This document shows, in pieces, positions 9,319-43,916 of a stretch of 64,000 bases of DNA. The DNA lies in assembly GCA_965178125.1 (NCBI GenBank), contig OZ237739.1, forward strand, positions 992,001 to 1,056,000, in the 5' to 3' direction. The number at the start of each line of letters is the position of its first letter. The first letter of the stretch is position 1. The position numbers and the translations under genes are program-made. Source of the stretch: Bilabrum cf. latius. Lineage: Eukaryota. The notes below the pieces were generated by a model. That model made no database searches and was not told the DNA's origin. It was given only the letters and a program-made list of their open reading frames with translations.

Positions 9319-12180
9319 ATGACGGATAAGGTTTATATTCATGCGACGCGCTCTTTGTGGTTCCGGCTGCTGCAGCTTGCGTTGCTATCCCTCCTTAACT
9401 TGGGGTTGCAGACCTCATACGATTCTGTAGGTGCAAGTGCTCCTGTATTGAGGGACTCATGGGGAATGGACGCAGAAGCAATCGGAGATTTAATAGCAGC
9501 ATACCATTTGCCTAATGTGGTGATGGCTGCTATTGGCGGGATGCTCGTAGATTGGATTGGTGGCGAGCTCGCGAGCGTTGTGTTCGCATCGTTTGTCGTC
9601 GTGGGCACCGCCATCACAAGCGCAGCCCATACGCTTCAAGCGATGCTAATCGGACGAGTCATCTTAGGGCTTGGGGGCGAATCCTTGGTGGTTGCCTAGC
9701 TCGCGATTCTCACGCATGCCTTTCCGATGGCCGGCTCAGCGGATGCCTTGAGCAGCTTTCCGTCGCAAGGAGTTGCCCTTGCGATGCAGCTCATGGTCAC
9801 AAGAGCCGCAACATTAGGAACATTTCTATTGCTTCCAGCTGCGTACGACACGGACCACTTGTCCAAGATTGCGAAGGACGCAGCGGCCGGGGGTCGGTCG
9901 GTGCGAGCGCAACCGAGCGCCTTCGAGGCCGGGCCTGGGACTATCTTAGTGACGATATCACTGGTGTCTCTGGCCCTCGCACTGACCTTGTTGTTCATGC
10001 ACGGCTTGCTTGGCTTTTCGACTCCTGCCTAGGTGCATCTATTGCCGTGCTTTGTCAAGGGCACTGGCCATGGGGATGGGGGCGAGGACGGGAGCGGTGG
10101 CGGCGGCAAGGCATTGGGAGATGGGACTCCGACCGATAGTGACAGCTAGGCTGCATGTTCGTGCCTCTGCTGCTCATCGCGAGGACAACCCAAGCTTCTG
10201 TAGAGCAATGCAAAAGCGGCAGAGGATGGCTCAGGGAGGTCAGCGCCCGAAGTTGGGCAGCAGGCTGCAGCTCCAACCGCCGCAGTCACACAATTCGACG
10301 ATGCCGGTGCGCTAGGACAAGCCGAGGATGGCTTGGGTAGGAGTGGAACTGCGGAAGACTCGGATGCTGGTGCCGGTGCTGGTGCTGGTACGCGAGGGTT
10401 TAGGCATAGGATAGGCACTAGTGGCGGTCAACCTGCCCCACGCTTGGGTGGAGTGGAAGATAGCGAAGACCCGCTCTCAACTGAGGAGCAAGACAGGAGA
10501 CAGACGGCTGGCCGTGTGCGAAGGCTCAGCGGCAAGCAATCGAATTTGTTCGGCAGAGGAAGGCACGCCCTCCCTGGCGAGGAGCAGCACGAGGCAGAGG
10601 CGCTCTACAAGCAGCGAGGCGCGAAGTCAACCCCTACAAGCTATATTCCGTTGACAGACGCTGGGACATCTGCTGCTGGTTCAGTGCCTGGGGCTTCTCC
10701 TGCAGCTCCCGTCGAGGGCACATCACACGGTGCACGCCGCAGGCTTGGATTCAACAGCCCGCCCTCTCTACCAGCTGGATACAGCGCGAGCGTTCGTCTG
10801 ACTGGATTGCCATCCCGTCTGGAACATTCGCCTGCGGCGGCGGTTCCATCCATAGGTGGCCCATCCGATGTCCTAGAATCGGGCGCTTCGACCCCAGCGA
10901 ACCGATCCAGGGGGGGCCAGAGTACCCGGTCGAGACATAGCAAGCGCTCCCGTCGCAGTGCCAGAAGAAGGCGCCAGGACGCAGAGCCCCTGCCGCCCGG
11001 AGACTAGGCGGATTTATCCGACGGGAGTAGCTTGGACGAAGACAGAGATGTAGCGGAGGAAGTGCCCCTCGCAAAGCGAGGTCTCCTGATGCGATTCCTG
11101 TCGCTGGGGTGCGACTCGTGGCAGGACCAGGTGTGTGGGTGGCAGCGCCGCCCCGCACCCCTTCGAAGCGCGCGCGAGAGCCATCAGAAAAGAGTATTCC
11201 GCGGCGCAAAGGAGGCGGATGGTGGGGTTTGGGAGGAGGACGTGTCTGACCCCGGCGAGGCATCGTCGCCTGTGTACGCGCGGGAGAGGCGGCGGGGGTG
11301 CCTCGCGTGCATGGACATGTCGTGCTGGAGGTCGATGGGCTGCGCCGAGTGCTGCGATGAGGACGGATGCGAGGAGTGCCTGGGCGAGGACGGCTGCTGC
11401 GGGTGCTTGCTGTGCCTCGATGATTGCGGGTGCACGGAGGCGTGCGAGGATGGGGGGTGCTGCAGGTGCGACACGTGCAGCCGTGCGTGCGGCTGCGATG
11501 CCCTCGGGGCTTCGTGCTGGGCCTGCCTCACCTGCGAGATGGATCCTCCTGCCGATGGAGCCGGTGGCACGCGTGCGGTGGGCGTCATGGGGAACAGATG
11601 GGTGCTGTTCCTGCTCGGGTCCTTTTTGGTGCTGTGGTCCGGGGCCATGATCACTTTCGTTGACTTTGCCACGGACCTGTTTGCCGACCGGTGGCACTAC
11701 ACTCCCGCGCAAGCTGGCCGAACCACGTCGCTGCTGACTCTGTGCGCCATCGTGCTGATGGTGCCGGTCGGGGCGGTGGTCGATGCGACGGGTCAGGTGG
11801 GCGGGTTGCTGGTGGGTGGTTCCTCAGTGACTGCCCTTGGGATCGGGCTGCTGTGGCTGCTGCCGGTGCTGCCCCCGGAGTGGGGGGCTCTGCTGATCGG
11901 GATTGGAGCGGCCGTGGTATCGGCTGTGCTGTGGCCTGCTCTGGGTCAGGTCATCCCTGCAGGGTCTCGTGGATCGGTGCTGGGGCTGCTGCTGTGCCTG
12001 CAGAACCTGGTGCTGTGCTTCGGGCCGATGGCGCTGGGCGTGTTGCGGGACGCTGGGGGCGGGTATGACGAGGCGCTGGTGATTTTCGCTGGGCTGGTGT
12101 GCGTGTGCGTGTTTCTGTGCGGTGCTCTGTTGGTGGCGTGGCAGAGGGCCATGGGACAGGGCGTGAACAAAGGGGCGTGA
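9319..12180 (+). CDS. MFS transporter, MFSD1-like (~953 aa), with a very long central loop containing a Cys-rich tract
   Basis: GRVILGLGGESLVVA-TAG matches MFSD1 GRFVFGIGGESLAVAQ; motif A-like GGMLVDWIG and GAVVDATG; two hydrophobic TM bundles. In-frame TAGs at 9697, 10030, 10147, 10201, 11005; TGA stop. Confidence 0.85.
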
Positions 12181-12454
12181 CTTGATCGATGAGATGGAGG
12201 GGGATCTTGCAGTGGAGGACCGTCGAGCTGGACTGAGAACCATGATTGGTCGCCGTTCGGTTTCGCTCCCGCCCTTAGGGTTCCGGTCATTTAGCGCAAG
12301 ATACTGTCTTCAAGGTTAGTTCATTGCATCACATTGCACATCTGATCGTTGTGGTGGATCAATCCGGAATATTGCATTCGGCAAATCCGAGCTTGCAGAA
12401 ACTTCAATTGTATTTCACAGGACGGCTCGTTCTTGCCTGTTCTGTGTTTGCATC

Positions 12455-14158
12455 ATGGCAGGTGATCGATTCTCGGTGCGAAAAGAGGTCGAGCAATACG
12501 TCACTGGTAGTCCGTACCGAGATATCGAGACGATCGTAAGAGATAGTAGCGGGGCATTTCTATTGCCTCCGGAACTGCTGGATCGAGATTTCGGTGTCGA
12601 TTGTATTTGTTGGCAACGCGATTTGTACTTGCTTGCTACTTGTTGATTGCAGGCGGGATCCGATGGCATGCACGAACGACACAAACGAGGCAGGAACGAC
12701 TTCGCACCACAGTGCACGTTGGTTGCCGAGTTTGTCGGCTGCGTCCTTCGAGGATACGCCCGCGGTAGCATGCCTGCAGGATCCGGCACCGAGGCGCTCA
12801 AGCGCCTGCAGACTGCCATGGGAGCCGACGGAGTGCGCTTGCGGTCGCTGCGCCTCGTTGGCGAGACGATCGATGGTGCAGCGGGCCGATTGCTGTGCGA
12901 GATGGTGTGCATGGGAGGCGATAATGAGGGGTTGCGCTGCTTGCATCTGTGTGACTGTGACTGGGAGGCTGGAGCGATGGAGGCGTTGTCACCAGCGATG
13001 CTATGGGATGGTGTTGATGGCCGGCTGGACGCTCTGCTGGTGCAGGATACAAGGGAGTCCATCGATGGGATGCCGATGGAGTGCGTGAGGCGCCTTGGGA
13101 CAGTGCTGCAGGACGCAAGGTGCAGCGTGCGTGTGCTGGGCCTGAGCGGGCTGCTTGGATGTAAACGCGACACTGGGAATGGTCTGTGGTGCGCACCTGT
13201 GCTAAAAGTCCTGATTAACCGGAATGCGTTTATAGCTTATGCCATCGGGCTGAACAGCAGCGTGACGTACTTCCAAGCTGGAATGTGCGTGGTCGGCGCC
13301 GGCACTCTGCAGGCCTGGACGGATGCGCTGGCAACTACGCGGACGATACTCCAGCTTCAGATATTCTTCATGGTCGGGACGAAGCAAACGAGTTATCTGC
13401 TGGGCGAGTAGGTGGCCCGCATCGTGCGGGAGAACAGGAGCATCCGCGATCTGAAGCTGTTCTTCAATATGCAGGTCAACCCCAACCCCGGTTACACTCG
13501 CATGGGTCGATTGCGTGAGGCCATAGGGCAGAACAAGACACTTCGGTCGATCGCGATCGGGTACAGGCACGAGTACTGCTCCAATCACGAAGAATTATTC
13601 AAGCAATACGATTGGACGGTGAATACCGTGATTGCCAACCCGCGCATTGTGCATTTTGACTGGATCACTGTGCACATAGGGGATATGTACCACAGATTGT
13701 GTCCGACCTTGCTGCCTCGATTGCAAGCCATGCATTCGAGGCAGTCCAGGGTGTGGGCCATGATTAGGCACCGCCATGCAGCGCAGGCCCATCGGAACGC
13801 AGGGCTTGTCTATCAGGCTGCAGCGGAGGGGCGGCCGATGGAGCTGGCGAAGCGGCTAAAACTTGGCGTCATGGCAGGCACAGCTGAGAGTCAGGTGGGT
13901 GTCGGTGGGTCGATACAGAACGCACTGAAAGCAGCTGTGTCCAATGGGCACGACGAGTGTGCGCTGCTGGTGCGTCGGTCACTGGCACGCGAGCTGCATC
14001 GGAGGTTGATTTACTCTGGCTAGGACATGCAGAGGTCGACTGCTCATGTAAGCAAGGAGGTGCTGCCAAGTCTGTCGATTGGTAAGCCCAGAGCCGCGCA
14101 ACCAGCTATGGCGATGCCGGACGAAAATGAAGCTGATGGGTGTTGTGTGCTCTCATGA
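12455..14158 (+). CDS. LRR(RI-like)-ankyrin-CaaX protein, copy 1, subfamily A (~528 aa)
   Basis: Exon 1 12455-12535; intron 12536-12652 (GTAAGA...TTGCAG, phase 0); TAGs at 13409 and 14021. Repeated NxS/TL/IxxL motifs (NSSVTYF, NRSIRDL, NKTLRSI); ankyrin-like LVYQAAAEG and ALKAAVSNGHDECALLV; ends GCCVLS-TGA. Confidence 0.8.
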
Positions 14159-14440
14159 GTATCATGCTGATGCTGAAATGGGGCTGGCCTCTCCATCTGC
14201 GCGCTTGCACATATTTGTCATCTTTGCTCGACATCTTGACGAGTTGCCAAACGTGCAGATCGAGAAGCTGCCGCATCTGTTCCACCTGCAGCAGATGATA
14301 TTCGAGTGGATGGCCTCACCGAAGACCGCATCGCGCTTGCAGACGGCCGCGAGCCAACACCAGTACTGGTTGGCCTCACCTTTGACCGGAGCGAATCTTT
14401 TACGATGCCTTACTTCGATCCACAGTTCGAGCAAGAGGCT

Positions 14441-15062
14441 AGCCGGTGGCACGCGTGCGGTGGGCGTCATGGGGAACAGATGGGTGCTGTTCCTGCTCGG
14501 GTCCTTTTTGGTGCTGTGGTCCGGGGCCATGATCACTTTCGTTGACTTTGCCACGGACCTGTTTGCCGACCGGTGGCACTACACTCCCGCGCAAGCTGGC
14601 CGAACCACGTCGCTGCTGACTCTGTGCGCCATCGTGCTGATGGTGCCGGTCGGGGCGGTGGTCGATGCGACGGGTCAGGTGGGCGGGTTGCTGGTGGGTG
14701 GTTCCTCAGTGACTGCCCTTGGGATCGGGCTGCTGTGGCTGCTGCCGGTGCTGCCCCCGGAGTGGGGGGCTCTGCTGATCGGGATTGGAGCGGCCGTGGT
14801 ATCGGCTGTGCTGTGGCCTGCTCTGGGTCAGGTCATCCCTGCAGGGTCTCGTGGATCGGTGCTGGGGCTGCTGCTGTGCCTGCAGAACCTGGTGCTGTGC
14901 TTCGGGCCGATGGCGCTGGGCGTGTTGCGGGACGCTGGGGGCGGGTATGACGAGGCGCTGGTGATTTTCGCCGGGCTGGTGTGCGTGTGCGTGTTTCTGT
15001 GCGGTGCTCTGTTGGTGGCGTGGCAGAGGGCCATGGGACAGGGCGTGAACAAAGGGGCGTGA
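14441..15062 (+). pseudogene. Duplicated C-terminal half of the MFSD1-like transporter (open frame, ATG 14469)
   Basis: Near-identical to 11559-12180; lacks the N-terminal TM bundle. Confidence 0.75.
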
Positions 15063-15336
15063 CTTGATCGATGAGATGGAGGGGGATCTTGCAGTGAAGG
15101 ACCGTCGAGCTGGACTGAGAACCATGATTGGTCGCCGTTCGGTTTCGCTCCCGCCCTTAGGGTTCCGGTCATTTAGCGCAAGATACTGTCTTCAAGGTTA
15201 GTTCATTGCATCACATTGCACATCTGATCGTTGTGGTGGATCAATCCGGAATATTGCATTCGGCAAATCCGAGCTTGCAGAAACTTCAATTGTATTTCAC
15301 AGGACGGCTCGTTCTTGCCTGTTCTGTGTTTGCATC

Positions 15337-17034
15337 ATGGCAGGTGATCGATTCTCGGTGCGAAAAGAGGTCGAGCAATACGTCGCTGGTAGTCCGTACC
15401 GAGATATCGAGACGATCGTAAGAGAAAGTAGCGGGACATTTCTATTGCCTCCGGAACTGCTGGATTGAGATTTCGGTGTCGATTGTATTTGTTGGCAACG
15501 CGATTTGTACTTGCTTGCTACTTGTTGATTGCAGGCGGGATCCGATGGCATGCACGAACGACACAAACGAGGCAGGAACGACTTCGCACCACAGTGCACG
15601 TCGGTTGCCGAGTTTGTCGGCTGCGTCCGTCGGGGATACGCCCGCGGTAGCATGCCTGCGGGATCCGGCACCGAGGCGCTCAAGCGCCTGCAGACTGCCA
15701 TGGGAGCCGACGGAGTGCGCTTGCGGTCGCTGCGCCTCGTTGGCGAGACGATCGATGGTGCAGCGGGCCGATTGCTGTGCGAGATGGTGTGCATGGGAGG
15801 CGATGATGAGGGGTTGCGCTGCTTGCATCTGTGTGACTGTGACTGGGAGGCTGGAGCGATGGAGGCGTTGTCACCAGCGATGCTGTGGGATGGTGTTGAT
15901 GGCCGGCTGGACGCTCTGTTGGTGCAGGACACGAGGGAGTCCATCGATGGGATGCCGATGGAGTGCGTGAGGCGTCTTGGGACAGTGCTGCAGGACGCAA
16001 GGTGCAGCGTGCGTGTGCTGGGCCTGAGCGGGCTGCTTGGTTTTCATGCCGAAAGCATGCTGTCACCTGGCCCCGTGCTTGAGACGTTGATTAACCGGAA
16101 TGCGTTTATAGCTTATGCCATCGGGCTGAACAGCAGCGTGACGTACTTCCAAGCTGGAATGTGCGTGGTCGGCGCCGGCACTCTGCAGGCCTGGACGGAT
16201 GTGCTGGCAACTACGCGGACGATACTCCAGCTTCAGATATTCTTCATGGTCGGGACGAAGCAAACGAGTTGTCTGCTGGGCGAGTAGGTGGCCCGCATCG
16301 TGCGGGAGAACAGGAGCATCCGCGATCTGAAGCTGTTCTTCAATATGCAGGTCAACCCCAACCCGGGCTACACTCGCATGGGTCGATTGCGTGAGGCCAT
16401 CGGGCAGAACAAGACACTTCGGTCGATCGCGATCGGGTACAGGCACGAGTACTGCTCGGACGGGCAGGAACTGTTCACACAGTATGGTAGGACAGCGAAT
16501 ACCGTGATTGCCAACCCGCGCATTGTGCATTTTGACTGGATCACTGTGCACATAGTTGGTATGTACAACAGATTGTGGCCGACCTTGCTGCCTCGATTGC
16601 AAGCCATGCATTCGAGGCAGTCCAGGGTGTGGGCCATGATTAGGCACCGCCATGCAGCGCAGGCCCATCGGAACGCAGGGCTTGTCTATCAGGCTGCAGC
16701 GGAGGGGCGGCCGATGGAGCTGGCGAAGCGGCTAAAACTTGGCGTCATGGCATGCACAGCTGAGAGTCAGGTGGGTGTCGGTGGGTCGATACAGAACGCG
16801 CTGAAAGCAGCTGTGTCCAATGGGCACGACGAGTGTGCGCTGCTGGTGCGTCGGTCACTGGCACGCGAGCTGCATCGGAGGTTGATTTTCTCTGGCTAGG
16901 ACATGCAGAGGTCGACTGCTCATGTAAGCAAGGAGGTGCTGCCAAGTCTGTCGATTGGTAAGCCCAGAGCCACGCAACCAGCTATGGCGATGCCGGACGA
17001 AAATGAAGCTGATGGGTGTTGTGTGCTCTCATGA
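15337..17034 (+). CDS. LRR-ankyrin-CaaX protein, copy 2, subfamily A
   Basis: Intron 15418-15534, which contains an in-frame TGA supporting intron status; TAGs at 16285 and 16897; ends GCCVLS-TGA. Confidence 0.8.
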
Positions 17035-17363
17035 GTATCACGCTGATGCTGAAATGGGGCTGGCTCCATCTGCGCGCTTGCACATACTTGTCGTCTTTGC
17101 TCGACATCTTGACGAGTTGCCAAACATGCAGATCGAGAAGCTGCCGCATCTGTTCCACCTGCAGCAAATGATATCCGGTGGCCTCACCGAAGACCGCGTT
17201 GCGATTGCAGACGGCCACGAGCCAACACCAGCACTGGTTGACCTCACCTGAGCCGCTGCGGGCTGCGAGCCGGCCGCCGACTCCCCATCAGGAGTGGACA
17301 GTATTTGACCGGAGCGAATCCTTTACGATGCCTTACTTCGATCCACAGTTCGAGCAAGAGGCT

Positions 17364-17985
17364 AGCCGGTGGCACGCGTGCGGTGGGCGTCATGGGGAAC
17401 AGATGGGTGCTGTTCCTGCTCGGGTCCTTTTTGGTGCTGTGGTCCGGGGCCATGATCACTTTCGTTGACTTTGCCACGGACCTGTTTGCCGACCGGTGGC
17501 ACTACACTCCCGCGCAAGCTGGCCGAACCACGTCGCTGCTGACTCTGTGCGCCATCGTGCTGATGGTGCCGGTCGAGGCGGTGGTCGATGCGACGGGTCA
17601 GGTGGGCGGGTTGCTGGTGGGTGGTTCCTCGGTGACTGCCCTTGGGATCGGGCTGCTGTGGCTGCTGCCGGCGCTGCCCCCGGGGTGGGGAGCTCTGCTG
17701 ATCGGGATTGGAGCGGCCGTGGTATCGGCTGTGCTGTGGCCTGCTCTGGGTCAGGTCATCCCTGCAGGGTCTCGTGGATCGGTGCTGGGGCTGCTGCTGT
17801 GCCTGCAGAACCTGGTGCTGTGCTTCGGGCCGATGGCGCTGGGCGTGTTGCGGGACGCTGGGGGCGGGTATGACGAGGCGCTGGTGATTTTCGCCGGGCT
17901 GGTGTGCGTGTGCGTGTTTCTGTGCGGTGCTCTGTTGGTGGCGTGGCAGAGGGCCATGGGACAGGGCGTGAACAAAGGGGCGTGA
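17364..17985 (+). pseudogene. Duplicated C-terminal half of the MFSD1-like transporter, second copy
   Basis: Near-identical to 11559-12180 with three missense changes (G>E, V>A, E>G); frame open. Confidence 0.75.
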
Positions 17986-18259
17986 CTTGATCGATGAGAT
18001 GGAGGGGGATCTTGCAGTGGAGGACCGTCGAGCTGGACTGAGAACCATAATTGGTCGCCGTTCGGTTTCGCTCCCGCCCTTAGGGTTCCGGTCATTTAGC
18101 GCAAGATACTGTCTTCAAGGTTAGTTCATTGCATCACATTGCACATCTGATCGTTGTGGTGGATCAATCCGGAATATTGCATTCGGCAAATCCGAGCTTG
18201 CAGAAACTTCAATTGTATTTCACAGGACGGCTCGTTCTTGCCTGTTCTGTGTTTGCATC

Positions 18260-19969
18260 ATGGCAGGTGATCGATTCTCGGTGCGGAAAGAGGTCGAGCA
18301 ATACGTCGCTGGTAGTCCGTACCGAGATATCGAGACGATCGTAAGAGAAAGTAGCGGGACATTTCTATTGCCTCCGGAACTGCTGGATTGAGATTTCGGT
18401 GTCAATTGTATTTGTTGGCAACGCGATTTGTACTTGCTTGCTACTTGTTGATTGCAGGCGGGATCCGATGGCATGCACGAACGACACAAACGAGGCAGGA
18501 ACGACTTCGCACCACAGTGCACGTTGGTTGCCGAGTTTGTCGGCTGCGTCCGTCGGGGATACGCCCGCGGTAGCATGCCTGCGGGATCCGGCACCGAGGC
18601 GCTCAAGCGCCTGCAGACTGCCATGGGAGCCGACGGAGTGCGCTTGCGGTCGCTGCGCCTCGTTGGCGAGACGATCGATGGTGCAGCGGGCCGATTGCTG
18701 TGCGAGATGGTGTGCATGGGAGGCGATGATGAGGGGTTGCGCTGCTTGCATCTGTGTGACTGTGACTGGGAGGCTGGAGCGATGGAGGCGTTGTCACCAG
18801 CGATGCTATGGGATGGTGTTGATGGCCGGCTGGACGCTCTGCTGGTGCAGGATACAAGGGAGTCCATCGATGGGATGCCGATGGAGTGCGTGAGGCGTCT
18901 TGGGACAGTGCTGCAGGACGCAAGGTGTAGCGTGCGTGTGCTGGGCCTGAGCGGGCTGCTTGGTTTTCATGCCGAAAGCATGCTGTCACCTGGCCCCGTG
19001 CTTGAGACGTTGATTAACCGGAATGCGTTTATAGCTTATGCCATCGGGCTGAACAGCAGCGTGACGTACTTCCAAGCTGGAATGTGCGTGGTCGGCACCG
19101 GCACTCTGCAGGCCTGGACGGATGTGCTGGCAACTACGCGGACGATACTCCAGCTTCAGATATTCTTCATGGTCGGGACGAAGCAAACGAGTTGTCTGCT
19201 GGGCGAGTAGGTGGCCCGCATCGTGCGGGAGAACAGGAGCATCCGCGATCTGAAGCTGTTCTTCAATATGCAGGTCAACCCCAACCCGGGCTACACTCGC
19301 ATGGGTCGATTGCGTGAGGCCATCGGGCAGAACAAGACACTTCGGTCGATCGCGATCGGGTACAGGCACGAGTACTGCTCCAATCACGAAGAATTATTCA
19401 AGCAATACGATTGGACGGTGAATACCGTGATTGCCAACCCGCGCATTGTGCATTTTGACTGGATCACTGTGCACATAGGGGATATGTACCACAGATTGTG
19501 TCCGACCTTGCTGCCTCGATTGCAAGCCATGCATTCGAGGCAGTCCAGGGTGTGGGCCATGATTAGGCACCGCCATGCAGCGCAGGCTCATCGGAACGCA
19601 GGGCTTGTCTATCAGGCTGCAGCGGAGGGGCGGCCGATGGAGCTGGCGAAGCGGCTAAAACTTGGCGTCATGGCAGGCACAGCTGAGAGTCAGGTGAGTG
19701 TCGGTGGGTCGATACAGAACGCGCTGAAAGCAGCTGTGTCCAATGGGCACGACGAGTGTGCGCTGCTGGTGCGTCGGTCACTGGCACGCGAGCTGCATCG
19801 GAGGTTGATTTACTCTGGCTAGGACATGCAGAGGTCGACTGCTCATGTAAGCAAGGAGGTGCTGCCAAGTCTGTCGATTGGTAAGCCCAGAGCCACGCAA
19901 CCAGCAATGGCGATGCCGGACGAAAATGAAGCTGATGGGTGTTGTGTCACAACTTGTGTGCTCTCATGA
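18260..19969 (+). CDS. LRR-ankyrin-CaaX protein, copy 3, subfamily A (mosaic of copies 1 and 2)
   Basis: Intron 18341-18457; TAGs at 19208 and 19820; ends GCCVTTCVLS-TGA. Confidence 0.8.
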
Positions 19970-20307
19970 GTATCATCCGGAATCTGGATGCTGAAATGGG
20001 GCTGGCCTCTCCATCTGCGCCATCGCACATATTTGCCATCTTTGTTCGACATCTTGACGTGATATCAAGGAATTTTTTTAAAATAACAATTAAAATATTC
20101 TGATCCTAACGCCGGATGGGGTTCGGTGTTGATGCCAGAGTGCGAGCGAAATCTGAATCTGAAATCTGAAATCTGATTTAGGGTCAAGCATAACCGAACA
20201 ATGGGTGCTGCACAAGACAGCATAACCATGACGGTGGACTTTCGTCCGCAACCATACAGATGAAAGATTCACCACTTCCATCTGCAGGTCCCATCCACTC
20301 CGTCTTC

Positions 20308-20913
20308 TCACCATCCATACAGACTTGCTCGTGGCGCCATCCGCCTTACCAATCTCGTCTGCAGTGCCTCGTTGACGTCATTCTACCTGTTCCAAAGCTT
20401 CCTTTCTCCGTCCCTCAACCTAACGGTTCCTCGGATCGCTCTTAGCCCAGTCCTGCACCATATCTCCTCCATCTACTTTCGCACGCCTCTCATCTTCCGC
20501 TCATCCGGTCGTCCTCTAGGTCTCCCCCAATTCGTCCATCTCTCTAGCCCAGTCACAAGAGTTGGCCATGCTGACAAGGATGTTCCTCGCCATCTCAGCA
20601 TCCGACACCGCGTCGGGTACCTACTCCATGCGTTCTCCATTGCGTCCAGGAATCCACTCAGTTCCTTCCTTTGCACTTCCTCCTTGATCCTGTGCACTAC
20701 CTACCTCATCCTTGGAATTGCTGCTCCCTTGGATGACTCAATCGGCTCCGACTCCCAGGGTTTCTCTGTCCATGGGGATCGTCCATCCACCCCCTTCACC
20801 ATCAACTTCGTCGTCTGCTCCGTCGTGCCCTGGCCCGATTGCCATCGCTGAACCAACCTCCTCACCTGACGCTGACCTTCTGGTGTAAGCACCGTCGGCC
20901 GTGGCAATATCAT
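20308..20913 (-). CDS. Antisense ORF inside the retroelement (~201 aa, R/W/E-rich), unknown function
   Basis: Track ORFs 20701-21111 and 20473-20697 are in one frame, joined by TAGs, running to TGA at 20308-20310; ATG at 20913. Strong purine skew on the minus strand; plus frames are interrupted by TGA/TAA. Confidence 0.5.
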
Positions 20914-21129
20914 GCACCGAGCCTTAAGTGCCAATCCCCCAAGGTTCCCCGGCTCTGTACCCCCGCGAGCTTTGGGATAGCCCCTGGACCGAACACTCCC
21001 AACTAGGACCCGTCCATCCACTCTCGTACCATAGCATAGGCAACTGCATCCATAGCGCGTGAATGTCTCGTTGGGTTCCGATGGCGGTTGCGACCGGGAA
21101 GGTGCGACCAAGCCAACGGATTGCTCGCG

Positions 21130-24100
21130 ATGACGCGCATACCCTCTCTGTGTTCAGGAGAGGGGCGGAGATTGGGTAATTTTTTGATGCTCTCATCCCA
21201 TGACTGGCGCCATACAGGCGAACGCTGTGACGTTGAGATTCGTGACCTGGTTGGAAATGAGATTCCTTCGTGCTCCTCTGGAGACTGCATGCGCCTTCTG
21301 CAATTGCTGCACCCGTGGGCCACTGAGGCATGCAGATCCGGCGAACCTGGCCTTGTGCGCGGCCTGCTGCAAGGAGTCCAGGCTGACATGCAGGCACCGT
21401 CCCGTCGAGCAGCCCTGTCCCGTCACTTCGACCCCCGCGGGGGCAGTGGAGGTTCCAGGCGCGGCGGGGGTGACAGCGACCAGCCCGGTGCCGATCGTGG
21501 CGGAGATCGACGCCGTCGAGGCCGTGAACGTGGCGGTGCAGGCCAGCAAGGTGACCAACACCAGCGTGGGGACCGGAAGGACGGGGGATCTACCAGGAAG
21601 GCGAAGGATCCTTCACCTGACCCCCCACGAGATACTTCACGGCAGAGCCAGCCCAGCACTCCAACACTGCCACAGGGGCGTACGCAGACTGCCACCACCT
21701 CGGACGCGTGTGGTGCATCCACGCCACCTGTCACATCAACGCCCGCGCTTCACCCAGTCCTGGTGGCCCTAGCACGCCCGAAGCGACCGCGGCGGCCGCC
21801 CACAGCGTCCTCCACGAGGCTGCCAGGTAGGACGGACATCTCTCCAGCATTCGTTGACTGGGCCTATCCAGCTCCGGATCCAAGTCATGAGTGGGCAGGG
21901 ACGACAGCACCATCCGTGGAGGACTTCATCCAGCGAAAGGACGATCACCAGCGTACCAGAGACTGTCCCGGCGAATTCGTTGAGGCTCCAGCTGCAACGT
22001 GGGACCGTGAGCGGATCCACCTGAAGGTTCACGAAGACCCGCTGGCCTTCACGCCACGCAAGTACTTCGACAAGGTGCCTCGCTAGACTGCAACGCTGCG
22101 GACCCGCCGGGAGGTTCTGTTTGGCGGCCGCACACCGAGGAAGGTCCCGTCCCTTGCCGAGTTCAGAGCCCTCCCACGGATCGAACGTGTACTGGCAGCA
22201 CTGAACTATGGTTGCCCCCTGGCCATCGTGGACGAGGTGCCCAAAGAGCACGATCTAGACTACAAGGACCGTAAGCTGTCTCCGGAAGAAAAGTGGGAGA
22301 TCGCCTGTGAGATCGGGCGCTCCATGAGGGCTGGCGAGCGTGACTTCGTGTCACCCAAGGATTTCGACACAGCCCGGGCCCGGCCGCTGGTGATCCCCAA
22401 GAAGGACTCGACAAAGCTACGGTTCCTCCAGGACTCCTCACTCAAGGTGAACGGCCAGCGTACCGGTCTGAACAAGGCCATCGACTACAGTACAGCCACG
22501 CCAGTACAGCAGACGAGCAGCATGGACGTGCTTCGCTCGGCAGCCGCAGCAGTTCGATCCTGCCCCAAGCGTGCCAGTGGATACGTCGTCGACATTTCCT
22601 CGTACTTTCGTGTCCTGCCGGTGGCAGTGGAGGACCTCCAATACAACCTGATCAAGCTGCCCGACGGGCGCATCGTGCAAGATTTCCGGCTCTCCATGGG
22701 CAGCTCCTCATCTCCCGCGTTCGCAACCACGATCAGTTCGGCTTTGGCCCGGGCCCTCGAGGAGCAGTCCATTGGCAGGGCCATGCGACCCAGGCGGAGA
22801 CACAAGCAGAAGCAACGACACTGGAAGCAGCAGCACGCCAACGCCCAATCCAGCACGACGGACCAGGCGCCCCAGGAGAACTCGTCAGCAACGTCCACCC
22901 CGCCTGCCGCTGGCACGACAGCGGGACACGTCAAGACGGCCCAGGACTAGTCCCGCCATTGGTAGGTCGAAAATGAGGTGTTTGTGGATGATTTCGCCTG
23001 CCTCGGCGGAGATCACGAAGTCGATGCATGGGCAATTCGAGCCATGGGGCAGCTGGACTCCGCGAACTTCCCCGTCAGCATCTCGAAAGCATTGAAGCAA
23101 GGGGCCCCAGCCCCGTTGTTCGAGTACTTGGGCCTCACCTACGACTTGATCAAACACGAGGTGCGTTGCCCTACGGACAAGGCCACCGAGGTACTGCGCA
23201 GACTGCACGAAGCACTCACGACGAAGGGGATGCTGCTGTCTAGCTTTGAGACCTTGGTCGGCAAGTTGACCTTCCTGTCGGGCGCTCTTTATGGTATGCG
23301 CGGTGCTCTACGTCCCCTCTATGACGCCAAAGGCTGGGCCCTCCACAAGTAGGCCAGCCGGTCACGACCAGGTGAGGTGTGGGTCCCCACCTCCTTTGTG
23401 TCCAAGGGCGGCTTCACAGTTGGTGAAATCCTCGAAGGGTTCCAGGTGGCCATCCAGCGCAAAGGCGGGCGCAGTTTTCCGATGCGGGGCACCATTGACT
23501 GTCCCATCCTTCGCACTGATGCGTCGGTGACAGGCTACGGCGCCGAGCTGCTTCTCCACGACAAGGACGGCAACATCACTTCGCACACCGGCATCCAGGG
23601 CACTTGGCCGCATCGCCTAGAGGCGAAGGATGTAGCGGCGGCAGAACTTGCAACATGTTTGTTGGCGCTTGCGCATTGGCGACAGCACCTGCGTGGGCGT
23701 GTGGTGCGTTTGTGGTGTGACAATGATGCTTCCGTGTAGCTGATACGCTACGGCCGACCCAAGAGCCACATCATGGCAGCCTTACTTCGCCCTATCTTCG
23801 TACTGCAGACAACGCAAGATGTGTAGATTCACGTGAAACACATTTCTGGCGAGGACAACATCGTTGCGGACGCTTTGAGCCGCGGCTCGCGGGCGGCATA
23901 CGCGCACCTGGACGCGGTGTATCAGGTCGACTGTCCCGCGCCGATCTGGAAGACCTTGTACGAGCACGACCATTTCACGCTGGTGGCCACTCTGGACTCA
24001 GTGGGTTGCGCACGGCGTGGGGGCACTTCGACAACTTCCTCACGTGGTACGACATCGACCGCAGCTTCATGGACGGGCATCTTCCAGCAGCTCGCAGACT

Positions 24101-24870
24101 CTTCGCGTTCAGGCTCAATGCAGCGCTCTCGAGATTCGCAGTCTTCTTAGGGGAATGTTCGCCTCTCAGTGGCGGCACCATCGCTACATACACCAGAAAT
24201 GCCTAGCGAGTCGTCATCGAGTCCACAGGAGCGTGCGGCGTCCCACGGTCAAGCTAGCTCGACAGCATCCTCCGGTACTACCACAAAGCATCGCCATCGT
24301 CGCACCCTTTGCGTCGATCTTCAGCCCCACTCCGAGCAATCCGACGGTGTTTCTCGACAGCCGGTTGCGGCACAACAGAGCAGGCTGCTCGGGCAGCTGT
24401 CTGTATCTGCTTCTGTGGGGGCCTCCGGCTGGGAGAACTCGTCGGTGCGTCCAGACGACAAGCCGGCCTTTAATGGCAGCAAGTGCAGTTTATTACGCGA
24501 GACAGACGCATCCATGGTGTTGCCATCCGCCTGGGTCTCCACAAAGCCGACGGCCCAGCCAAGTTCTCCATCCAAGCCGCAGAGCCCATCACAGTCCATT
24601 GCAGAGCAGGCCGATGGGCAATCACAGGCAGCAGATTCTGCGGCGTGCGAGCCTTCGTGGCGTGGGCAGCAGCAAGCCACGCCCCAACTGCAGGCGCAGG
24701 CTAAGACTACGCCCGGTAGCTGGCGCTCAGCTGCCCCACGACAGGGCCGGTCTTCGTGGCGAACACGAGGCCGATCGTCAAGGCGCAGGTAGTCCGGGCG
24801 CTCCGCAGCTTCTGCCCACGCGAAGTTGCAGGAGCGGTGCACGGACATTCCATCCGCATCGCGGCAGTGA
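21130..24870 (+). CDS. Retroelement reverse transcriptase-RNase H ORF (start uncertain, up to ~1246 aa)
   Basis: VIPKKDSTKLRFLQD, VVDISSYFRVL (motif A), LSMGSSSSPAF (B), VFVDDF (C), FEYLGLTYD; RNase H TDASVTGYGA, AAELA, LWCDN, HISGEDNIVADALSR. Eight in-frame TAGs (22084, 22948, 22963, 23350, 23737, 23824, 24148, 24790); TGA at 24868-24870. Confidence 0.85.
21200..22024 (+). CDS. Retroelement ORF1 (putative Gag-like, Cys-rich CxxC...CxxC), overlapping the RT frame
   Basis: CAFCNCC...CAACC...C cluster; run of G/C-ending codons at about 21490-21575; TAG at 21770 read through to TGA at 22022-22024. The Gag assignment rests on position only. Confidence 0.45.
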
Positions 24871-25064
24871 TGTGTCTGGACCGTGCTGGGGTCGCCTTCG
24901 AGGTCATCAGGCGATTTAGCAGATGGAAGTCAGCATCTGCATGCGAGGTGTACTTGCGGGGCGTCAGGGAAGGCTTGCCTCCTCTGGAGCTCGGTGGCAG
25001 GAGCCTCGATTTGAACAGGCCAGTGTGGGTGCTGGCCAGCGCGCTGCGGCTGAACTTGGAGTGA
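24006..25064 (+). CDS. Tyrosine recombinase of the retroelement (no clear ATG; two in-frame TAA, possibly defective)
   Basis: TAWGHFDNF, LSGGTIATY, FCGGLRLGEL (catalytic R), LHKAD (K), GHSIRIAA (HxxR), RWKSASACEVYLR (W, Y). TAG at 24204, 24255, 24717; TAA at 24471 and 24702; TGA stop. Confidence 0.85.
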
Positions 25065-25357
25065 GCCACACAGCCGCAGCGTACAAGACATGGCGTTAAG
25101 ATTTGGCGGAGTAGTGCACGTGCTCTTCCCAGCCCCGGTCAGTCCGGTCAAGGGTCGCGCACAGGCACAGCTTTGTCAGGTCTGGCCATGTCTGATTGTT
25201 AACGAGACTAGGTTGCGCGTACACTCTGGCATCATGTTTGAAAGAGCTGGCTTCGCTGGTTTTTCTAAAACAGCAACTCGGCACGAATTAATATCAGCTT
25301 GCAAGTCCGTTCGCCCAACTGTAACCAAAGGTAGACCCAACCACCTAAGGGTGGGCT

Positions 25358-28300: not shown

Positions 28301-29581
28301 GGGTTGCACTAAATCTAGACCAAAAGCACCCCGAATCTATCCTTCGTTAGAAACCCCAGCGCTTTGCGGATGTTTTGTAGAATATCCTTTGCTGGCCTAG
28401 GCTCTCAGGTCCACAGCCTACTCCAGCAGCGCATGCATGTCGGGCCCCGTGCAGGCTGCCATGCCGATGGACGGCGACTGCGGGATCAAGGCTCCACTGC
28501 CCATGCTGGCCTCGCCCAGGCTCTTGATCTTTGACAGCAACGCATGCACTGGACCAAGGCCAGGCACCAGTAGTGGGGCCCTGGGCTTCTTCCCAGCCAC
28601 CTCCATGCGCTCCACCAGAGCCCCCAGCGCGGTGTCACAGAACGTGCGAGGGGCCCCGTGCTGGTCGCTGTGAGCGATGTCAGGCGCGTATCCGCCAATG
28701 GCGATGTGGTGCCTGTACTGCAGGCCGGGGTCAGGCCTGTCCATCCCACCCGACAGGTGGGCCAGCGTCATAGCGGAGGTAGCGAGCACCGCCCGCTCGG
28801 CCTCTGCTGCCACGAGGCTCCACGCGATGCGCATGTCAGGGCGCGCGGCGGCTTGGAAGGCGACGGACTGCACAGCCGCTTGCACCTGGCAGATGGGCTT
28901 GATGACGGGTGCGGCGTTGCCAGGGATGGTGGTGAGGCTGGCGAGCTGCTTTGTGCACGAGGCCACGAGGCGGTGCGTGCGGGCCATGGGATCGGAGCGA
29001 CCGCCATCTTCCGCTACGATGCCGTCTTGCTTCAGCCGATGGTTGGCCCCTGTGTCTGCATCTGCCGCTTGCACGTCGCGCAGGGCGCTAGACATGGCGG
29101 TGGCAGCGTCCCGCATGGCGCGACCGAGGGTGCGGGGATCCGTGCTGGTGACGAACGAGACGAAGTCGTCGGCCGGTAGCTCGTCTTCTTGATGCATCCA
29201 GTAGACATGATGCATGCATTGATCATCCACTGGGCGTTGCTCCTGGTCGGTTGAGTCCTGGGTTTGGGGGTGCGAGCCGGGCGCATGCTTGTGATCGTGC
29301 GAGTTCACGGCGGGAGCGGACCCATCTGCGAGGGCCGGCGGAAGCGCATACCAGGAGAAGGCAAATGTATGACATACGACCGTGTGTTTCTGGGCGCAGC
29401 TGACTTCAGTCTCACCGACATCGTGCTTCGAGACCTCCTGGGCGGGATCAATAACCGATTGCTTCGACTTGCGGTGCATGGGGCGAATCCTGCGGGCATT
29501 CCTCAAGCTTCTGGGCGGGTCATCAGCACGAATGCAGCACATGCATACGGCTAGTACACTCAGCACTGCCAGCGAACGCAT
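25358..29581 (-). CDS. Secreted subtilisin-like S8 peptidase, paralog A (~1407 aa unspliced)
   Basis: Signal peptide MRSLAVLSVLAVCMCCIRA; VIFIIDSGV (Asp), HGTKVA (His), AAAGNTG (oxyanion Asn), FSNWGQVVGIFA, ATSYAAPRVA (Ser). All track fragments are in one frame joined by TAG; TGA at 25358-25360. A 90-nt in-frame intron near the 5' end is possible. Confidence 0.8.
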
Positions 29582-30867: not shown

Positions 30868-31126
30868 TGCGCTTCATCGGGATGGCGACGTGGCGATAGG
30901 CAGTGGTTGGATCAGAGACATGCATTGATGGTCATGGCCAGGCCTCGATCACTTTGACTTTGATGCGGCCTCAAGCAAAGTTTATGCAATGCACTGCAAT
31001 GGCAATGTTTGCTGGCCGCCGGATCCATCCACCCGGAAGTTTTGCCTTTTTCGGGATCCTCGCCTGGGCGTCCCATTGCTGCATCTACACTTTCCTTCCC
31101 AAGATATTCTAAGCCCGATTGCATAC

Positions 31127-32709
31127 ATGGACCAAGCTCGAAACAGGCCTATCGATCTTTTCACCAGTCCAGCAAGAGACATTGAACTGGTTGTGAGTCG
31201 ATTGGAATCCATTTCCGAATCGACCTTCCCGCGATGGCTCCATGCGTTTCCATGTTTGATCATTACTTTGTATTTTGCATATCCATCTGGATGCAGGCGG
31301 TATCCGATGGTGTGCAAGAGCGACACAAACGAGGCAGGAACGACTTCGCACCACAGTGCACGTCGGTTGCCGAGTTTGTAGGCTGCGTCCTTCGAGGATA
31401 CGCCCGCGGTAGCATGCCTGCGGGATCCGGCACCGAGGCGCTGAAGCGCCTGCAGGCTGCCATGGGAGCCGACGGAGTGCGCTTGCGGTCGCTGCGCCTC
31501 ATTGGCGAGACGATCGATGGTGCAGCGGGCCGATTGCTGTGCGAGATGGTGTGCATGGGAGGCGATGATGAGGGGTTGCGCTGCTTGCATCTGTGTGACT
31601 GTGACTGGGAGGCTGGAGCGATGGAGGCGTTGTCACCAGCGATGCTGTGGGATGGTGTTGATGGCCGGCTGGACGCTCTGCTGGTGTAGGACACGAGGGA
31701 GTCCATCGATGGGATGCCGATGGAGTGCGTGAGGCGTCTTGGGACAGTGCTGCAGGACGCAAGGTGCAGCGTGCGTGTGCTGGGCCTGAGCGGGCTGCTT
31801 GGATTCAATACAAGAAGCTCCAACTCTCCTGGTCCCGAGCAGCAGACACTCATCGACCGGAACGCATATGTAGGGTATGCCATCGGGCTGAACAGCAGCG
31901 TGAGGTATTTGAAGACAGGCCTGTGTTTTGTAGGCGCCGGCACATTGCAAGCATGGGCGGATGCTCTGGCATGCAGCCGGACTCTAGTGCAGGTACACGT
32001 GAACCTGCAGCCGATGTCACCGAAAGGGTACGACGCAATGGGCGGCTCTGTGGCACGGATCGTGCGGGAGAACAGGAGCATCCGGGATATGGTGCTGCAG
32101 TTTGAGATCCGACTTCCTCCGACTGGCAATCCTATCGCGATAGATGCTTTGCGTGCAGCCATCCGACAGAATCAGGCGCTCCGGTCACTTGGGGTTGCCT
32201 ACAACTCGAACGAGTACCGCTATCATCGCAGACGGAGCGAGTTCTATCATGAGTACTTCCGCACAGTCGATGCAGTGATCGACAATCCGCGCATCGTGCA
32301 TTTCGAGTGGACCACTGGCCGAATCGATCATGTGGACGACCACCTGGTTCCAACCGTGCTGCCTCGACTGCAAGCCATGCGCTCGACATAGTCCAGGGTC
32401 TGGGCCATAGCCAGGCACCGTCGTGCAGCGCAGGCCCAGCAGGACGCAGGGCTTGTCTATCAGGCTGCAGCCGAGGGCCGGCCGCTGGAGCTGGCGAAGC
32501 GCCTGAGGCTGGGAGTGATGGCAGGCGGTGCGGAGAGGAAGGTGCAAGTCGGGTGTTGGTCACAAGACGCGCTGGAGGCAGCCATGTCGAATGGGCATGA
32601 CGATTGCGCGCTGCTGGTGCGTCGGGCACTGGCTCGCGAGGTGAATCGGAGGTCGATCTATTTCGGGTGGTGGTCGTGCTCGGGGCCTGGGTGCTGCGTG
32701 CTGTCGTGA
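31127..32709 (+). CDS. LRR-ankyrin-CaaX protein, copy 4, subfamily B
   Basis: Exon 1 MDQARNRPIDLFTSPARDIELV; intron 31193-31296 (GTGAGT...ATGCAG), same position as in subfamily A; TAGs at 31687 and 32389; ends PGCCVLS-TGA. Confidence 0.8.
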
Positions 32710-34619: not shown

Positions 34620-34697
34620 AGTAACCCATGCTGTACCGGAGTGCACGCCGTCAATAATGTGGCACAGATCCGACGACACGAAATCCAGTACTATGTA

Positions 34698-36277
34698 TCA
34701 CGACAGCACGCAGCACCCAGGCCCCGAGCACGACCACTACCCGAAATAGATCGACCTCCGGTGCACCTCGCGAGCCAGTGCCCGACGCACCAGCAGCGCA
34801 CAATCATCATGCCCATTCGACACGGCTGCCTCAAGCGCGTCTTGAGACCAACACCCGACTTGCACTTTCCTCTCCGCACCGCCTGCCATCACTCCCAGCC
34901 TCAGACGCTTCGCCAGCTCCAGCGGCCGCCCCTCGGCTGCAGCCTGATAGACAAGCCCTGCGTCCTGATGGGCCTGCGCTGCACGACGGTGCCTGACCAT
35001 GGCCCAGACCCTGGACTATGTCGAGCGCATGGCTTGCAGTCGAGGCAACACGGTTGGAACTAGGTAGTCATCTGGGCGATTTACTCGGCCAGTGGTCCAC
35101 TCGAAATGCACGATGCGCGGATTGTAGATCACTGCATCAGCTGTGCGGTAGTACTCGTGATAGAACCCGCTCCGCCGATGATAGAGGTACTCGTTCGAGT
35201 TGTAGGCAACCCCAAGTGACCGGAGCGCCTGGTTCTGTCGGATGGCTGCACGAAAATCATCTATCGCGATAGGACTGCCAGTCAGAGGAAGTCGGACCTC
35301 AAATTGCAGCACCAGATCCCGGATGCTCCTGTTCTCCCGCACGATCCATGCCACAGAGCCGCCCATTGCGTCGTACCCTTTGTGTGATATTGGCTTCAGC
35401 TCCACGTGCACCTGCACTAGAGTCCGGCTGCATGCCAGCACATCCGCCCATCCTCGCAATGTGCCGGCGCCTACCAAGCACAGGCCTGTATTCATATACC
35501 TCACGCTGCTATTCAGCCCGATGGCATACCCTACATAAGCGTTCCGGTCGATGAGTGTCTGCTGCACGGGACCAGGAGAGTGGGAGCTTATCGTAATGAA
35601 TCCAAGCAGCCCGCTCAGGCCCAGCACACGCACGCTGCACCTTGCGTCCTGCAGCACCGTACCAAGACGCCTCACGCACTCCATCGGCATCCCATCGATG
35701 GACTCCCTCGTGTCCTACACCAGCAGAGCGTCCAGCCGGCCATCAACACCATCCCACAGCATCGCTGGTGACAACGCCTCCATCGCTCCAGCCTCCCAGT
35801 CACAGTCACACAGATGCAAACAGCGCAACCCCTCATCATCGCCTCCCATGCACACCATCTCGCACAGCAATCGGCCCGCTGCACCATCGATAGTCTCACC
35901 AATGAGACGCAGCGACCGCAAGCGCACTCCGTCGGCTCCCATGGCAGCCTGCAGGCGCTTCAGCGCCTCGGTGCCGGATCCCGCAGGCATGCTACCGCGG
36001 GCGTATCCTCGAAGGACGCAGCCTACAAACTCGGCAACCGACGTGCACTGTGGTGCGAAGTCGTTCCTGCCTCGTTTGTGTCGCTCTTGCACACCATCGG
36101 ATCCCGCCTGCATCCAGATGAATATGCAAAATACAAAGTAATGATCAAACATGGAAAAGCATTGAGCCATCGCGGGAAGGTCGATTCGGAAATGGATTCC
36201 AATCAACTCACAACCAGTTCAATGTCTCTTGCTGGACTGGTGAAGAGATCGATAGGCCTGTTTCGAGCTTGATCCAT
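34698..36277 (-). CDS. LRR-ankyrin-CaaX protein, copy 5, subfamily B
   Basis: Intron 36108-36211; TAGs at 35715, 35016 and 34737; ends PGCCVLS-TGA. Confidence 0.8.
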
Positions 36278-42336: not shown

Positions 42337-43916
42337 TCACGACAGCACGCAGCACCCGGGCACCGAGCACGACCACCACCCGAAATAGATCGACCTCCGA
42401 TTCACCTCGCGAGCCAGCGACTGACGCACCAGCAGCGCGCAATCATCATGCCCATTCGACATGGCCGCCTCAAGCGCGTCTTGTGACCACCACCCGACTT
42501 GAACCTTCCTCTCCGCACCGCCTGCCATCACTCCCAGCCTCAGACGCTTGGCCAGCTCCAGCGGCCGCCCCTCGGCTGCAGCCCGCCACACCAGCCCTGC
42601 ATTCTGCTGGGCCTGTGCTGCGCGACGGTGCCTGACCATGGCCCAGACCCTGGATTGTGTAGAGCGCATGGCTTGCAGTCGAGGCAACACGGTTGGAACC
42701 AGGTAATCATCTGGGCGATTTACTCGACCAGTGGTCCACTCGAAATGCACGATGCGCGGATTGTCGATCACTGCATCAGCTGTGCGGTAGTACTCCTGAT
42801 AGAACTCGCTCCGCCGTTGATAGAGGTACTCATTCGAGTTGTAGGCAACCCCCAGTGACCGCAGCGCCTGATTCTGTCGGATGGCTGCACGCAAAGCATC
42901 CATCGCGATAGGACTGCCAGTCGGAGGAAGTCGGATCTCAAACTGCAGCACCAGATCCCGGATGCTCCTGTTCTCCCGCACGATCCGTGCCACAGAGCCG
43001 CCCATTGCGTCGTACCCTTTGTGTGACATCGGCTGCAGGTTCACGTGCACCTGCACTAGAGTCCGGCTGCATGCCAGCACATCCGCCCATCCTCGCAATG
43101 TGCCGGCGCCTACCAAGCACAGGCCTGTATTCAAGTACCTCACGCTGCTGTTCAGCCCGATGGCATACCCTACATATGCGTTCCGGTCGATGAGTGTCTG
43201 CTGCACGGGACCAGGAGAGTGGGAGCTTATTGTAATGAATCCAAGCAGCCCGCTCAGGCCCAGCACACGCACGCTGCACCTTGCGTCCTGCAGCACCGTC
43301 CCAAGACGCCTCACGCACTCCATCGGCATCCCATCGATGGACTCCCTCGTGTCCTGCACCAGCAGAGCGTCCAGCCGGCCATCAACACCATCCCACAGCA
43401 TCGCTGGTGACAACGCCTCCATCGCTCCAGCCTTCCAGTCACAGTCACACAGATGCAAACAGCGCAACCCCTCATCGTCGCCTCCCATGCACACCATCTC
43501 GCACAGCAATCGGCCCGCTGCACCATCGATCGTCTCGCCAACGAGGCGCAGCGATCGCAAGCGCACTCCGTCGGCTCCCATGGCAGTCTGCAGGCGCTTG
43601 AGCGCATCGGTACCGGATCCTGCAGGCATGCTACCGCGGGTGTATCCTCGACGGACGCAGCCTACAAACTCGGCAACCGACGTGCACTGTGGTGCGAAGT
43701 CGTTCCTGCCTCGTTTGTGTCGTTCTTGCATGCCATCGGATCCCGCCTGCATCCAGATGAATACGCAAAATACAAAGTAATGATCAAACATGGAAACGCA
43801 TAGAGCCATCGCGGGAAGGTCGATTCGGAAATGGATTTCAATGAACTCACAACCAGTTCAATGTCTCTTGCTGGACTGGTGAAGAGATCGATAGGCCTGT
43901 TTCGAGCTTGGTCCAT
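42337..43916 (-). CDS. LRR-ankyrin-CaaX protein, copy 6, subfamily B (~491 aa, no TAG)
   Basis: Exon 2 is one uninterrupted ORF even in the standard code; intron 43747-43850; ends PGCCVLS-TGA. Confidence 0.85.

Follow-up and report, generated by a model that had tools for sequence, protein, structure and literature searches.

Plant nucleotide-binding leucine-rich repeat (NB-LRR) genes and lamprey variable lymphocyte receptors (VLRs) are clustered leucine-rich repeat (LRR) genes diversified by sequence exchange; there, the concave strand residues are diversified with a ratio of replacement to silent substitution rates (dN/dS) above 1, or cassettes are assembled somatically. We analyzed a window of 64,000 nucleotides from Bilabrum cf. 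latius (assembly GCA_965178125.1, contig OZ237739.1, positions 992,001 to 1,056,000 of the forward strand; positions given without a contig count from the first letter of this window). Self-comparison of the window revealed three tandem LRR genes of one subfamily, A1 to A3, and three more distant copies further along, B1 to B3. Unlike the plant and lamprey systems, the strands are conserved here, and donor cassettes or signals were not found. The red/green opsin genes, as described in the available text of PMC3924837, are likewise paralogues that are almost identical apart from narrow, highly divergent islands, which lie in exon 5 at sites presumed to set specificity, and that text expects such a 'peak of divergence' when selection shields small sites from ongoing conversion. 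In contrast to the opsins, several islands of 23-53 bp lie in one exon here and are reassorted among three or more copies, at sites whose function we infer.

Two protist families also resemble this one. The Ectocarpus LRR genes, in the portion of PMC3341825 available, likewise form repeat-protein families in a stramenopile, evolve by birth and death, and have their presumed binding parts shuffled; there, each repeat is an exon that is shuffled whole, in proteins with GTPase or NB-ARC domains, whereas here one exon holds the repeats and loops smaller than a repeat are exchanged. The BspA-like LRR proteins of Entamoeba (PMC5349171) are also protist LRR proteins proposed to be held at the membrane by a prenyl group, but they belong to another LRR class (LRR_5) and are surface-located, and block exchange is not described in the available parts of that paper. 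We found no description of the present family in the literature searched, with most subscription journals outside coverage; an LRR family with one-sided loop exchange appears to be new, and the evolutionary process is already known.

The A1, A2, and A3 proteins are 94-96% identical and differ at defined loops of 8-18 residues. Consistent with the first-pass annotation of the window, the genes are nearly identical outside two regions, V1 and V2, with about 1% difference (18, 15, and 11 differences per pair over ~1,242 coding sites) versus 45-55% inside V1 and the first part of V2, V2a. V1, where the differences run from 13159 to 13211, reads CKRDTGNGLWCAPVLKVL in A1 and FHAESMLSPGPVLETL in A2 and A3, two forms that are separated by 27 substitutions and a 6-nt indel. 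The V2 sequences are also as previously given, A1 and A3 being alike and A2 different. The variation in V2 is real, but it does not form the single block first described: it falls into V2a, with 18 substitutions in 39 bp, and V2b, with 5 substitutions in 23 bp, separated by 59 bases that are identical in all three copies. Variation is far from uniform along the genes; the densest 40-bp window holds 23, 23, and 18 differences in the three pairs, compared to shuffle maxima of 12, 9, and 8, and the observed value was reached in none of the 20,000 shuffles performed per pair. The substitutions in the blocks are spread over more than one base type.

The divergence in these blocks extends to silent sites. 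The proportion of silent sites that differ (pS) is 0.78 in V1 and ~1.0 in V2a, compared to 0.019-0.035 in the flanks, and the proportion of replacement sites that differ (pN) is lower than pS in both blocks (0.44 and 0.26, respectively). Among codons that specify the same residue (edge codons excluded), 6 of 10 differ silently in the blocks and 11 of ~414 outside them; at the background rate, the chance of this excess is near 1e-7 (3e-8 if 6 of 9 are counted). V1 and V2a stand out as short stretches of old divergence in genes that have otherwise been homogenized recently, and the locus shows the homogenized flanks and the local peak, silent sites included, of a peak of divergence. The proposal that the loops were diversified by a selected burst of amino-acid changes fares poorly against these data, with pS above pN in V1 and V2a and a ratio of only 0.3-0.4 for recent loop changes. 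Because their silent sites are near saturation and pS exceeds pN, V1 and V2a are not fresh selected bursts. Only two blocks look replacement-rich: V2b of A, which over 8 codons has 4 replacements and not one codon altered purely silently (P about 5e-6 at background), and V1 of B, with 4 replacement differences versus 0-1 silent. Blocks would look like this if a recent burst of point mutations under positive selection had created them where they now stand. That origin is refuted for V1 and V2a and may hold for V2b alone; as an account of the blocks in general we find it scarcely credible.

The blocks have been exchanged between copies. A3 matches A2 throughout V1 and A1 throughout V2, and the split within each block is between deep lineages. 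The deep genealogies of V1 and V2a disagree, and at least one exchange between V1 and V2 is therefore required. The conclusion that A3 is the recombinant was overstated: since only three of the four V1 x V2 combinations exist, the recombinant copy cannot be named, and A3 could be parental with A1 and A2 the recombinants. The V1 form of A1 (V1b) is the derived one, because the form in A2 and A3 (V1a) shares its length and GP motif with B and with the paralogues on contig C9. The order of A1, A2, and A3 is unlike the product of one unequal crossover of a two-gene array, which would favor non-crossover conversion. All four gametes are present in 13 of the 21 informative site pairs in the 5' half of A and B, and incompatibility is lower between near sites than overall on C9 and C22 (0 of 500 permutations each) and on C5, the contig of the window (6 of 500). 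A and B are near-identical over their first 170 codons and diverge abruptly from V1 onward. The fact that the 59 bases between V2a and V2b are identical within A and silently different from B argues against one long imported tract; conversion tracts seem to be shorter than 60 bp. Within B, the blocks travel together (B1 versus B2 and B3) and no shuffling was seen.

Of the 'cassette-like gene conversion' first proposed, exchange between copies is borne out by the two deep genealogies; programmed cassettes are not, given that searches found no donors or flanking signals. Unlike diversification of the VLR, variant surface glycoprotein (VSG), or diversity-generating retroelement (DGR) type, the locus shows no donors, flanking repeats, or changes confined to single bases. 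A search of the block edges for repeats or signals returned only chance-level pairs, and a scan of the whole window with Rfam gave no matches. If very short tracts had recently been imported from a diverged donor absent from the assembly (a lost paralogue, another strain, or a related species), the sharp block edges and the saturated silent sites would fit, and close relatives of the family do occur among unnamed metagenome proteins. We nevertheless consider import improbable: genome searches, which give lower bounds, found no donor for V1b or for the V2 forms of A2; two or three separate tracts would be needed on the same edge of the protein, with the identical 59 bases inside V2 unexplained by one; and the same positions recur in other clusters.

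An assembly chimera is unlikely. Were A3, or the phasing of A1 and A2, the product of a chimera or haplotype switch, there would truly be one divergent gene and two similar ones; indeed, contigs from public runs break or collapse in the 56 bases shared by all copies where the match of A3 switches, and the order of the copies would also misfit a single unequal crossover. However, the depths in sequencing run X4 (154 for shared sequence, 50 for the V1b contig, and 50 and 40 for contigs across two distinct junctions between units) fit three real tandem copies, single-nucleotide polymorphisms (SNPs) private to A3 flank the switch on either side, the contig extends over 1.6 Mb, and mosaics recur on other contigs. 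We leave this reading a very slim chance. X4 may be the source sample of the assembly, and the public-run contigs, which come from 4 of 11 listed runs, are collapsed, with V1-V2 phase outside their reach and no further V1 x V2 combination called from them; among runs filed under other organism labels, which we did not count as independent, X2 and X6 carry the same junctions and X8 is too thin.

To place the blocks on the protein, we mapped them onto an AlphaFold model (pLDDT 78, pTM 0.77), which comprises ten beta-alpha units as well as one long helix and a small module of helices; the model is weak around V1, with residues 168-171 below pLDDT 50. V1 and V2 fall on ascending loops and helix starts, and by the secondary structure of the model all blocks lie on this one edge of the solenoid, off the concave sheet. 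The idea that they are ligand-binding LRR surfaces holds as far as location on one edge is concerned; ligand binding itself is an inference, and the concave face, where classical LRR receptors diversify, is conserved here. Exposed strand positions are unchanged in A, and the hypervariable concave strand residues of classical LRR receptors are not found. An ascending surface is used for ligands by Toll-like receptors (TLRs), according to the available text of PMC4598782.

The genome holds 39 full-length paralogues in six clusters, and the pattern extends to other clusters. We analyzed 38 of them; C9:333558 was missed by the motif filter and stands outside all family statistics. Replacement diversity in ascending versus descending loops is 0.20 versus 0.06 on C9, 0.19 versus 0.04 on C22, 0.33 versus 0.17 on C40, and 0.05 versus 0.00 in B, so that, in clusters where both loop classes are above zero, diversity is 2-5 times as high in the ascending ones; strands range from 0.00 to 0.12, compared to 0.03-0.33 for ascending loops. 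Indel columns within clusters, 13 in all, are found without exception in ascending loops. Replacement diversity is in excess at the A-defined columns on C9 (P=0.003), on C40 (0.0004), and in B (0.002), and a scan of 28 near-identical pairs again showed islands on C9 and C22 at the places of V2a and V2b. A truncated copy, C9_348415, was left out of the family alignment and of the C9 diversity and recombination statistics and kept in the island scan, where its island at 405-443 is a truncation artefact. The earlier statement that the same two regions vary in subfamily B is correct, with FNTRSSN and RIDHVDDH in B1 versus FITISSH and RVNRPDDY in B2 and B3, and column diversity, recurring islands, and ascending-loop diversity show the same in other clusters. 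The cluster at C9:277000-480000 is larger, with 17 paralogues, mosaic loops, and swapped C-terminal tails, and is the best site for measuring conversion and selection. The C22 cluster has ten paralogues, with N-terminal and V2b variants in all four combinations.

Profile matches, the AlphaFold model, and fold matches agree that these are LRR proteins with a fold like that of ribonuclease inhibitor (RI). The model matches the LRRs of NLRP3, RI, and NOD2 with Z of 20-23.5 over ~300 residues, and a 37-member profile matches LRRC34 (E 2e-10), NOD2, and ribonuclease inhibitor. Pfam LRR models match none of the 37 members, and single sequences matched no Pfam family and nothing among PDB sequences. 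The register aligns to LRRC34 and NOD2, but the units are of 28-45 residues rather than the 28-29 of the consensus LxxLxLxx(N/C)xL. The family shares the beta-alpha solenoid of RI-like proteins (ribonuclease inhibitor, the NLRP3 and NOD2 LRR domains, LRRC34) and differs from them in its 28-45-residue repeats, long ascending loops, lack of NACHT, and C-terminal module followed by a CaaX end. Since there is neither a NACHT nor an NB-ARC domain, and the gene consists of a 27-codon exon and an LRR exon, these are not NLR or NB-LRR proteins. Giant-virus LRR proteins share the fold at only 8-14% identity.

The C-terminal module, helix-helix-hairpin-helix-helix in the model, has at least 150 genomic matches (406 candidates, 150 scored). 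In the loci examined, this module of ~85 residues sits behind unrelated N-terminal domains (LRR, ankyrin-like, unassigned). Its likeness to ankyrin is given by atlas leads of 0.87-0.89, below the reliable range, with no match in Pfam. Both the module and close family relatives are present among unnamed metagenome proteins. Genes with the module often stand in tandem arrays (C32, C1, C14). Most family members have a Cys four residues from the C-terminus, and a CaaX end is present in 25 of 39 (24 of the 38 analyzed and the 39th), which suggests that these LRR proteins may be prenylated on the cytosolic face of a membrane.

We think that the locus is probably explained by concerted evolution with specificity loops protected by selection. 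A1 to A3 would descend from anciently diverged paralogues whose framework is made identical again and again by frequent short-tract gene conversion. Conversion tracts that erase a block would be selected against because the blocks presumably set what each protein binds; shielded in this way, the blocks would keep ageing at synonymous and replacement sites alike, and occasional copying of a whole block to a neighbor would yield a new V1 x V2 combination. The exchange would be ordinary homologous conversion, not a programmed cassette system. Alternatively, the loops could be weakly constrained and diverge faster until mismatch stops conversion tracts mechanically, so that islands persist without selection on specificity. 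Consistent with this, accumulated differences end conversion, as reported in the available text of PMC3924837, and dN/dS is below 1 everywhere. In a toy simulation of conversion with guessed parameters (four parameter sets), 64 of 592 low-background neutral runs gave single islands, mostly in loops when loops were fully relaxed, and up to 12% of neutral runs did so in another simulation set. But the neutral islands were wider (median 88-112 bp versus the 39-53 observed), and two narrow islands appeared in 0 of 592 low-background neutral runs versus 12 of 561 runs with four protected sites. At the measured loop ratio of 0.4, at most a quarter of neutral islands fell in loops. Moreover, descending loops do not show the effect, and the V2b of A, with its replacements and no purely silent change, fits neutral divergence poorly. 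We therefore consider this neutral account unlikely.

Several observations weigh against the protection of specificity loops by selection. In region-level ratios, no region has dN/dS above 1, and the ratio for recent loop changes is 0.31-0.37 versus 0.26 for the framework, with a Fisher P of 0.11 or 0.002 depending on the threshold. Long loops tolerate change in any solenoid, and the A-defined columns carry no excess in C22 (P=0.36) or C31 (0.11). A silent-site conversion scan was positive in 0 of 15 pairs on C5, 0 of 45 on C22, and 7 of 105 on C9; a runs test on A SNP patterns gave P=0.19; and the alignment of V1 is uncertain around the indel. In the simulation, all 12 successes with selection came from one short-tract setting, one of the four parameter sets, and the single islands of the neutral runs count here as well. 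Finally, 10 C22 and 3 C31 members have no canonical CaaX.

More tentatively, the CaaX ends, the size of the family, and the one-sided variation suggest that these could be prenylated proteins on the membrane side that act as sensors or adaptors. The variable edge might bind a foreign or fast-changing partner such as a viral or prey-derived protein, and the shared C-terminal module might couple to a common downstream partner. A wider and doubtful proposal is that the proteins with the module, at least 150 of them, form an intracellular recognition repertoire of a phagotrophic flagellate, in which a membrane-anchored LRR branch would combine ancient, balanced loop cassettes on its ascending edge, a protist counterpart of major histocompatibility complex (MHC) or R-gene diversity against giant viruses or ingested microbes. 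This family offers concrete, swappable candidates for the recognition of viruses or prey by free-living heterotrophic protists; because A1 to A3 differ at defined loops, specificity could be assigned directly by assays of binding or infection. As a natural example of divergence peaks under conversion, the locus is unusually sharp too.

Every A copy contains two in-frame TAG codons, and the A genes are intact because the host reads TAG as Gln, although standard annotation would call them broken. Judging from sequence, the host nuclear code reads UAG as Gln and keeps UAA and UGA as stops. When TAG (not TAA) is read through, the window is tiled by long open reading frames (ORFs), and where frames are broken, the codon that ends them is mostly TAG. 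Gln stands opposite TAG in all three cases shown for RPB2, in two of three structures for ATP12, and at one of three TAGs within the printed alignment for BCAT. Twelve long ORFs use 60 TAG, 369 CAG, and 137 CAA codons, and contig C23 carries, at 907607-907679, a tRNA gene whose anticodon is CTA; its alignment with Gln tRNAs is suggestive rather than decisive. GH31 homologues are uninformative at the TAG residue (four variable columns), and in TAG columns within the family Gln is the commonest partner in only 11 of 27 cluster-columns. The reading of the A genes as pseudogenes, with TAG as a stop, is rejected by the alignments of TAG to Gln, the long ORFs, and the tRNA with the CTA anticodon.

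The host, a marine-type flagellate, is a bicosoecid stramenopile related to Cafeteria. The best named match of its RPB2 is Cafeteria roenbergensis (57%), and a quick RPB2 tree puts it among bicosoecids beside Cafeteria, on a long query branch; a cox1 comparison found no close named relative. Under the same limits of coverage, the literature searched holds no description of UAG as Gln in a bicosoecid, and this is possibly an unreported reassignment; if so, the few known UAG-only reassignments would now include one in a stramenopile. The cases named in the available text of PMC11687900 are ciliates, a fornicate, a rhizarian, and a green alga. Iotanema spirale, Hartmannula sinica, Trochilia petrani, and Protocruzia are described there as likewise reading UAG as Gln, with UAA and UGA as stops and a CUA-anticodon tRNA, and the present host differs from them in being a bicosoecid stramenopile, a group not named in that text.

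Both subfamilies appear to be spliced, as judged from contigs of runs that are classed as RNA by guess only and of which none is recorded as RNA: in A, an X6 contig skips 12536-12652 (GT..AG), and in B, an X8 contig joins a B-type first exon to the same acceptor. The spliced X6 contig extends ~620 bases upstream of 12181, which is the length of the part of a major facilitator superfamily (MFS) transporter gene carried in each A unit; this part may be transcribed together with the LRR gene. The coordinates of the features are collected in Table 1.

Table 1 Features of the A and B loci in the 64,000-nucleotide window.
Feature	Position	Strand	Description
Tandem units of subfamily A	11559-14381, 14441-17249, 17364-20059		each ~2.9 kb; 96.6-97.3% identical (self-comparison of window)
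MFS transporter gene, 3' part	11559..12180, 14441-15062, 17364-17985	+	carried in each A unit
A1 exon 1	12455..12535	+	27 codons from ATG; GT..AG skip in X6 contig; translation
A1 intron	12536..12652	+	117 nt; same intron in A2 and A3
A1 exon 2	12653..14158	+	encodes 10 beta-alpha LRR units, a helical C-terminal module, and a CaaX end (CVLS); contains both TAG codons read as Gln
A1 V1 block (form V1b, unique)	13159..13213	+	ascending loop after strand 5 and start of its helix; no second genomic copy
A1 in-frame TAG read as Gln	13409..13411 and 14021-14023	+	
56-base stretch identical in A1-A3	13526..13581	+	A3 match switches here from A2 to A1
A1 V2a block (= A3)	13582..13620	+	end of ascending loop 9 and first half of its helix
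A1 V2b block (= A3)	13680..13702	+	start of helix after strand 10
A1 conserved C-terminal module	13718..14010	+	~85-95 aa; ankyrin-like by weak leads; at least 150 genomic matches
A1 CaaX motif CVLS	14144..14155	+	Cys directly before motif
Gene A2	15337..17034	+	exon 1 15337-15417, exon 2 15535-17034
A2 V1 (form V1a, identical to A3)	16042..16089	+	
A2 V2, unique forms	16456..16578	+	V2a 16456-16497, V2b 16555-16578
Gene A3	18260..19969	+	exon 1 18260-18340, exon 2 18458-19969; 3'-end 12-nt insertion leaves CVLS intact
A3 V1 (identical to A2)	18965..19012	+	
A3 V2a and V2b (identical to A1)	19379..19501	+	
Gene B1	31127..32709	+	V1 31804-31851, V2b 32326-32349
Gene B2	34698..36277	-	V1 35553-35600, V2b 35058-35081
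Gene B3	42337..43916	-	V1 43192-43239, V2b 42697-42720; no TAG codon
Beclin/Atg6 gene, 3' part	30151-30870, 36490-37260		carried in duplicated B units

Directly after A3, at 20100-25250, lies a DIRS/Ngaro-like retroelement with a reverse transcriptase/RNase H frame (20737-24870), a tyrosine-recombinase frame with two TAA stops (23727-25064), and imperfect 25-nt inverted ends at 20130 and 25234. Three related long ORFs, at 25358-29620 (-), 32867-34888 (-), and 37788-42038 (+), are interleaved with the B genes in inverted segmental duplications; they have no Pfam match and carry motifs that we take, by eye, to be subtilase-like. Just past the right end of the window, C5:1056001-1066000 contains two near-identical tandem ORFs of ~550 aa. 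Elsewhere in the genome, contig C111 is a 38.4-kb mitochondrial contig (table 4) with greatly lengthened ribosomal-protein-like ORFs of 808 and 1,063 aa.

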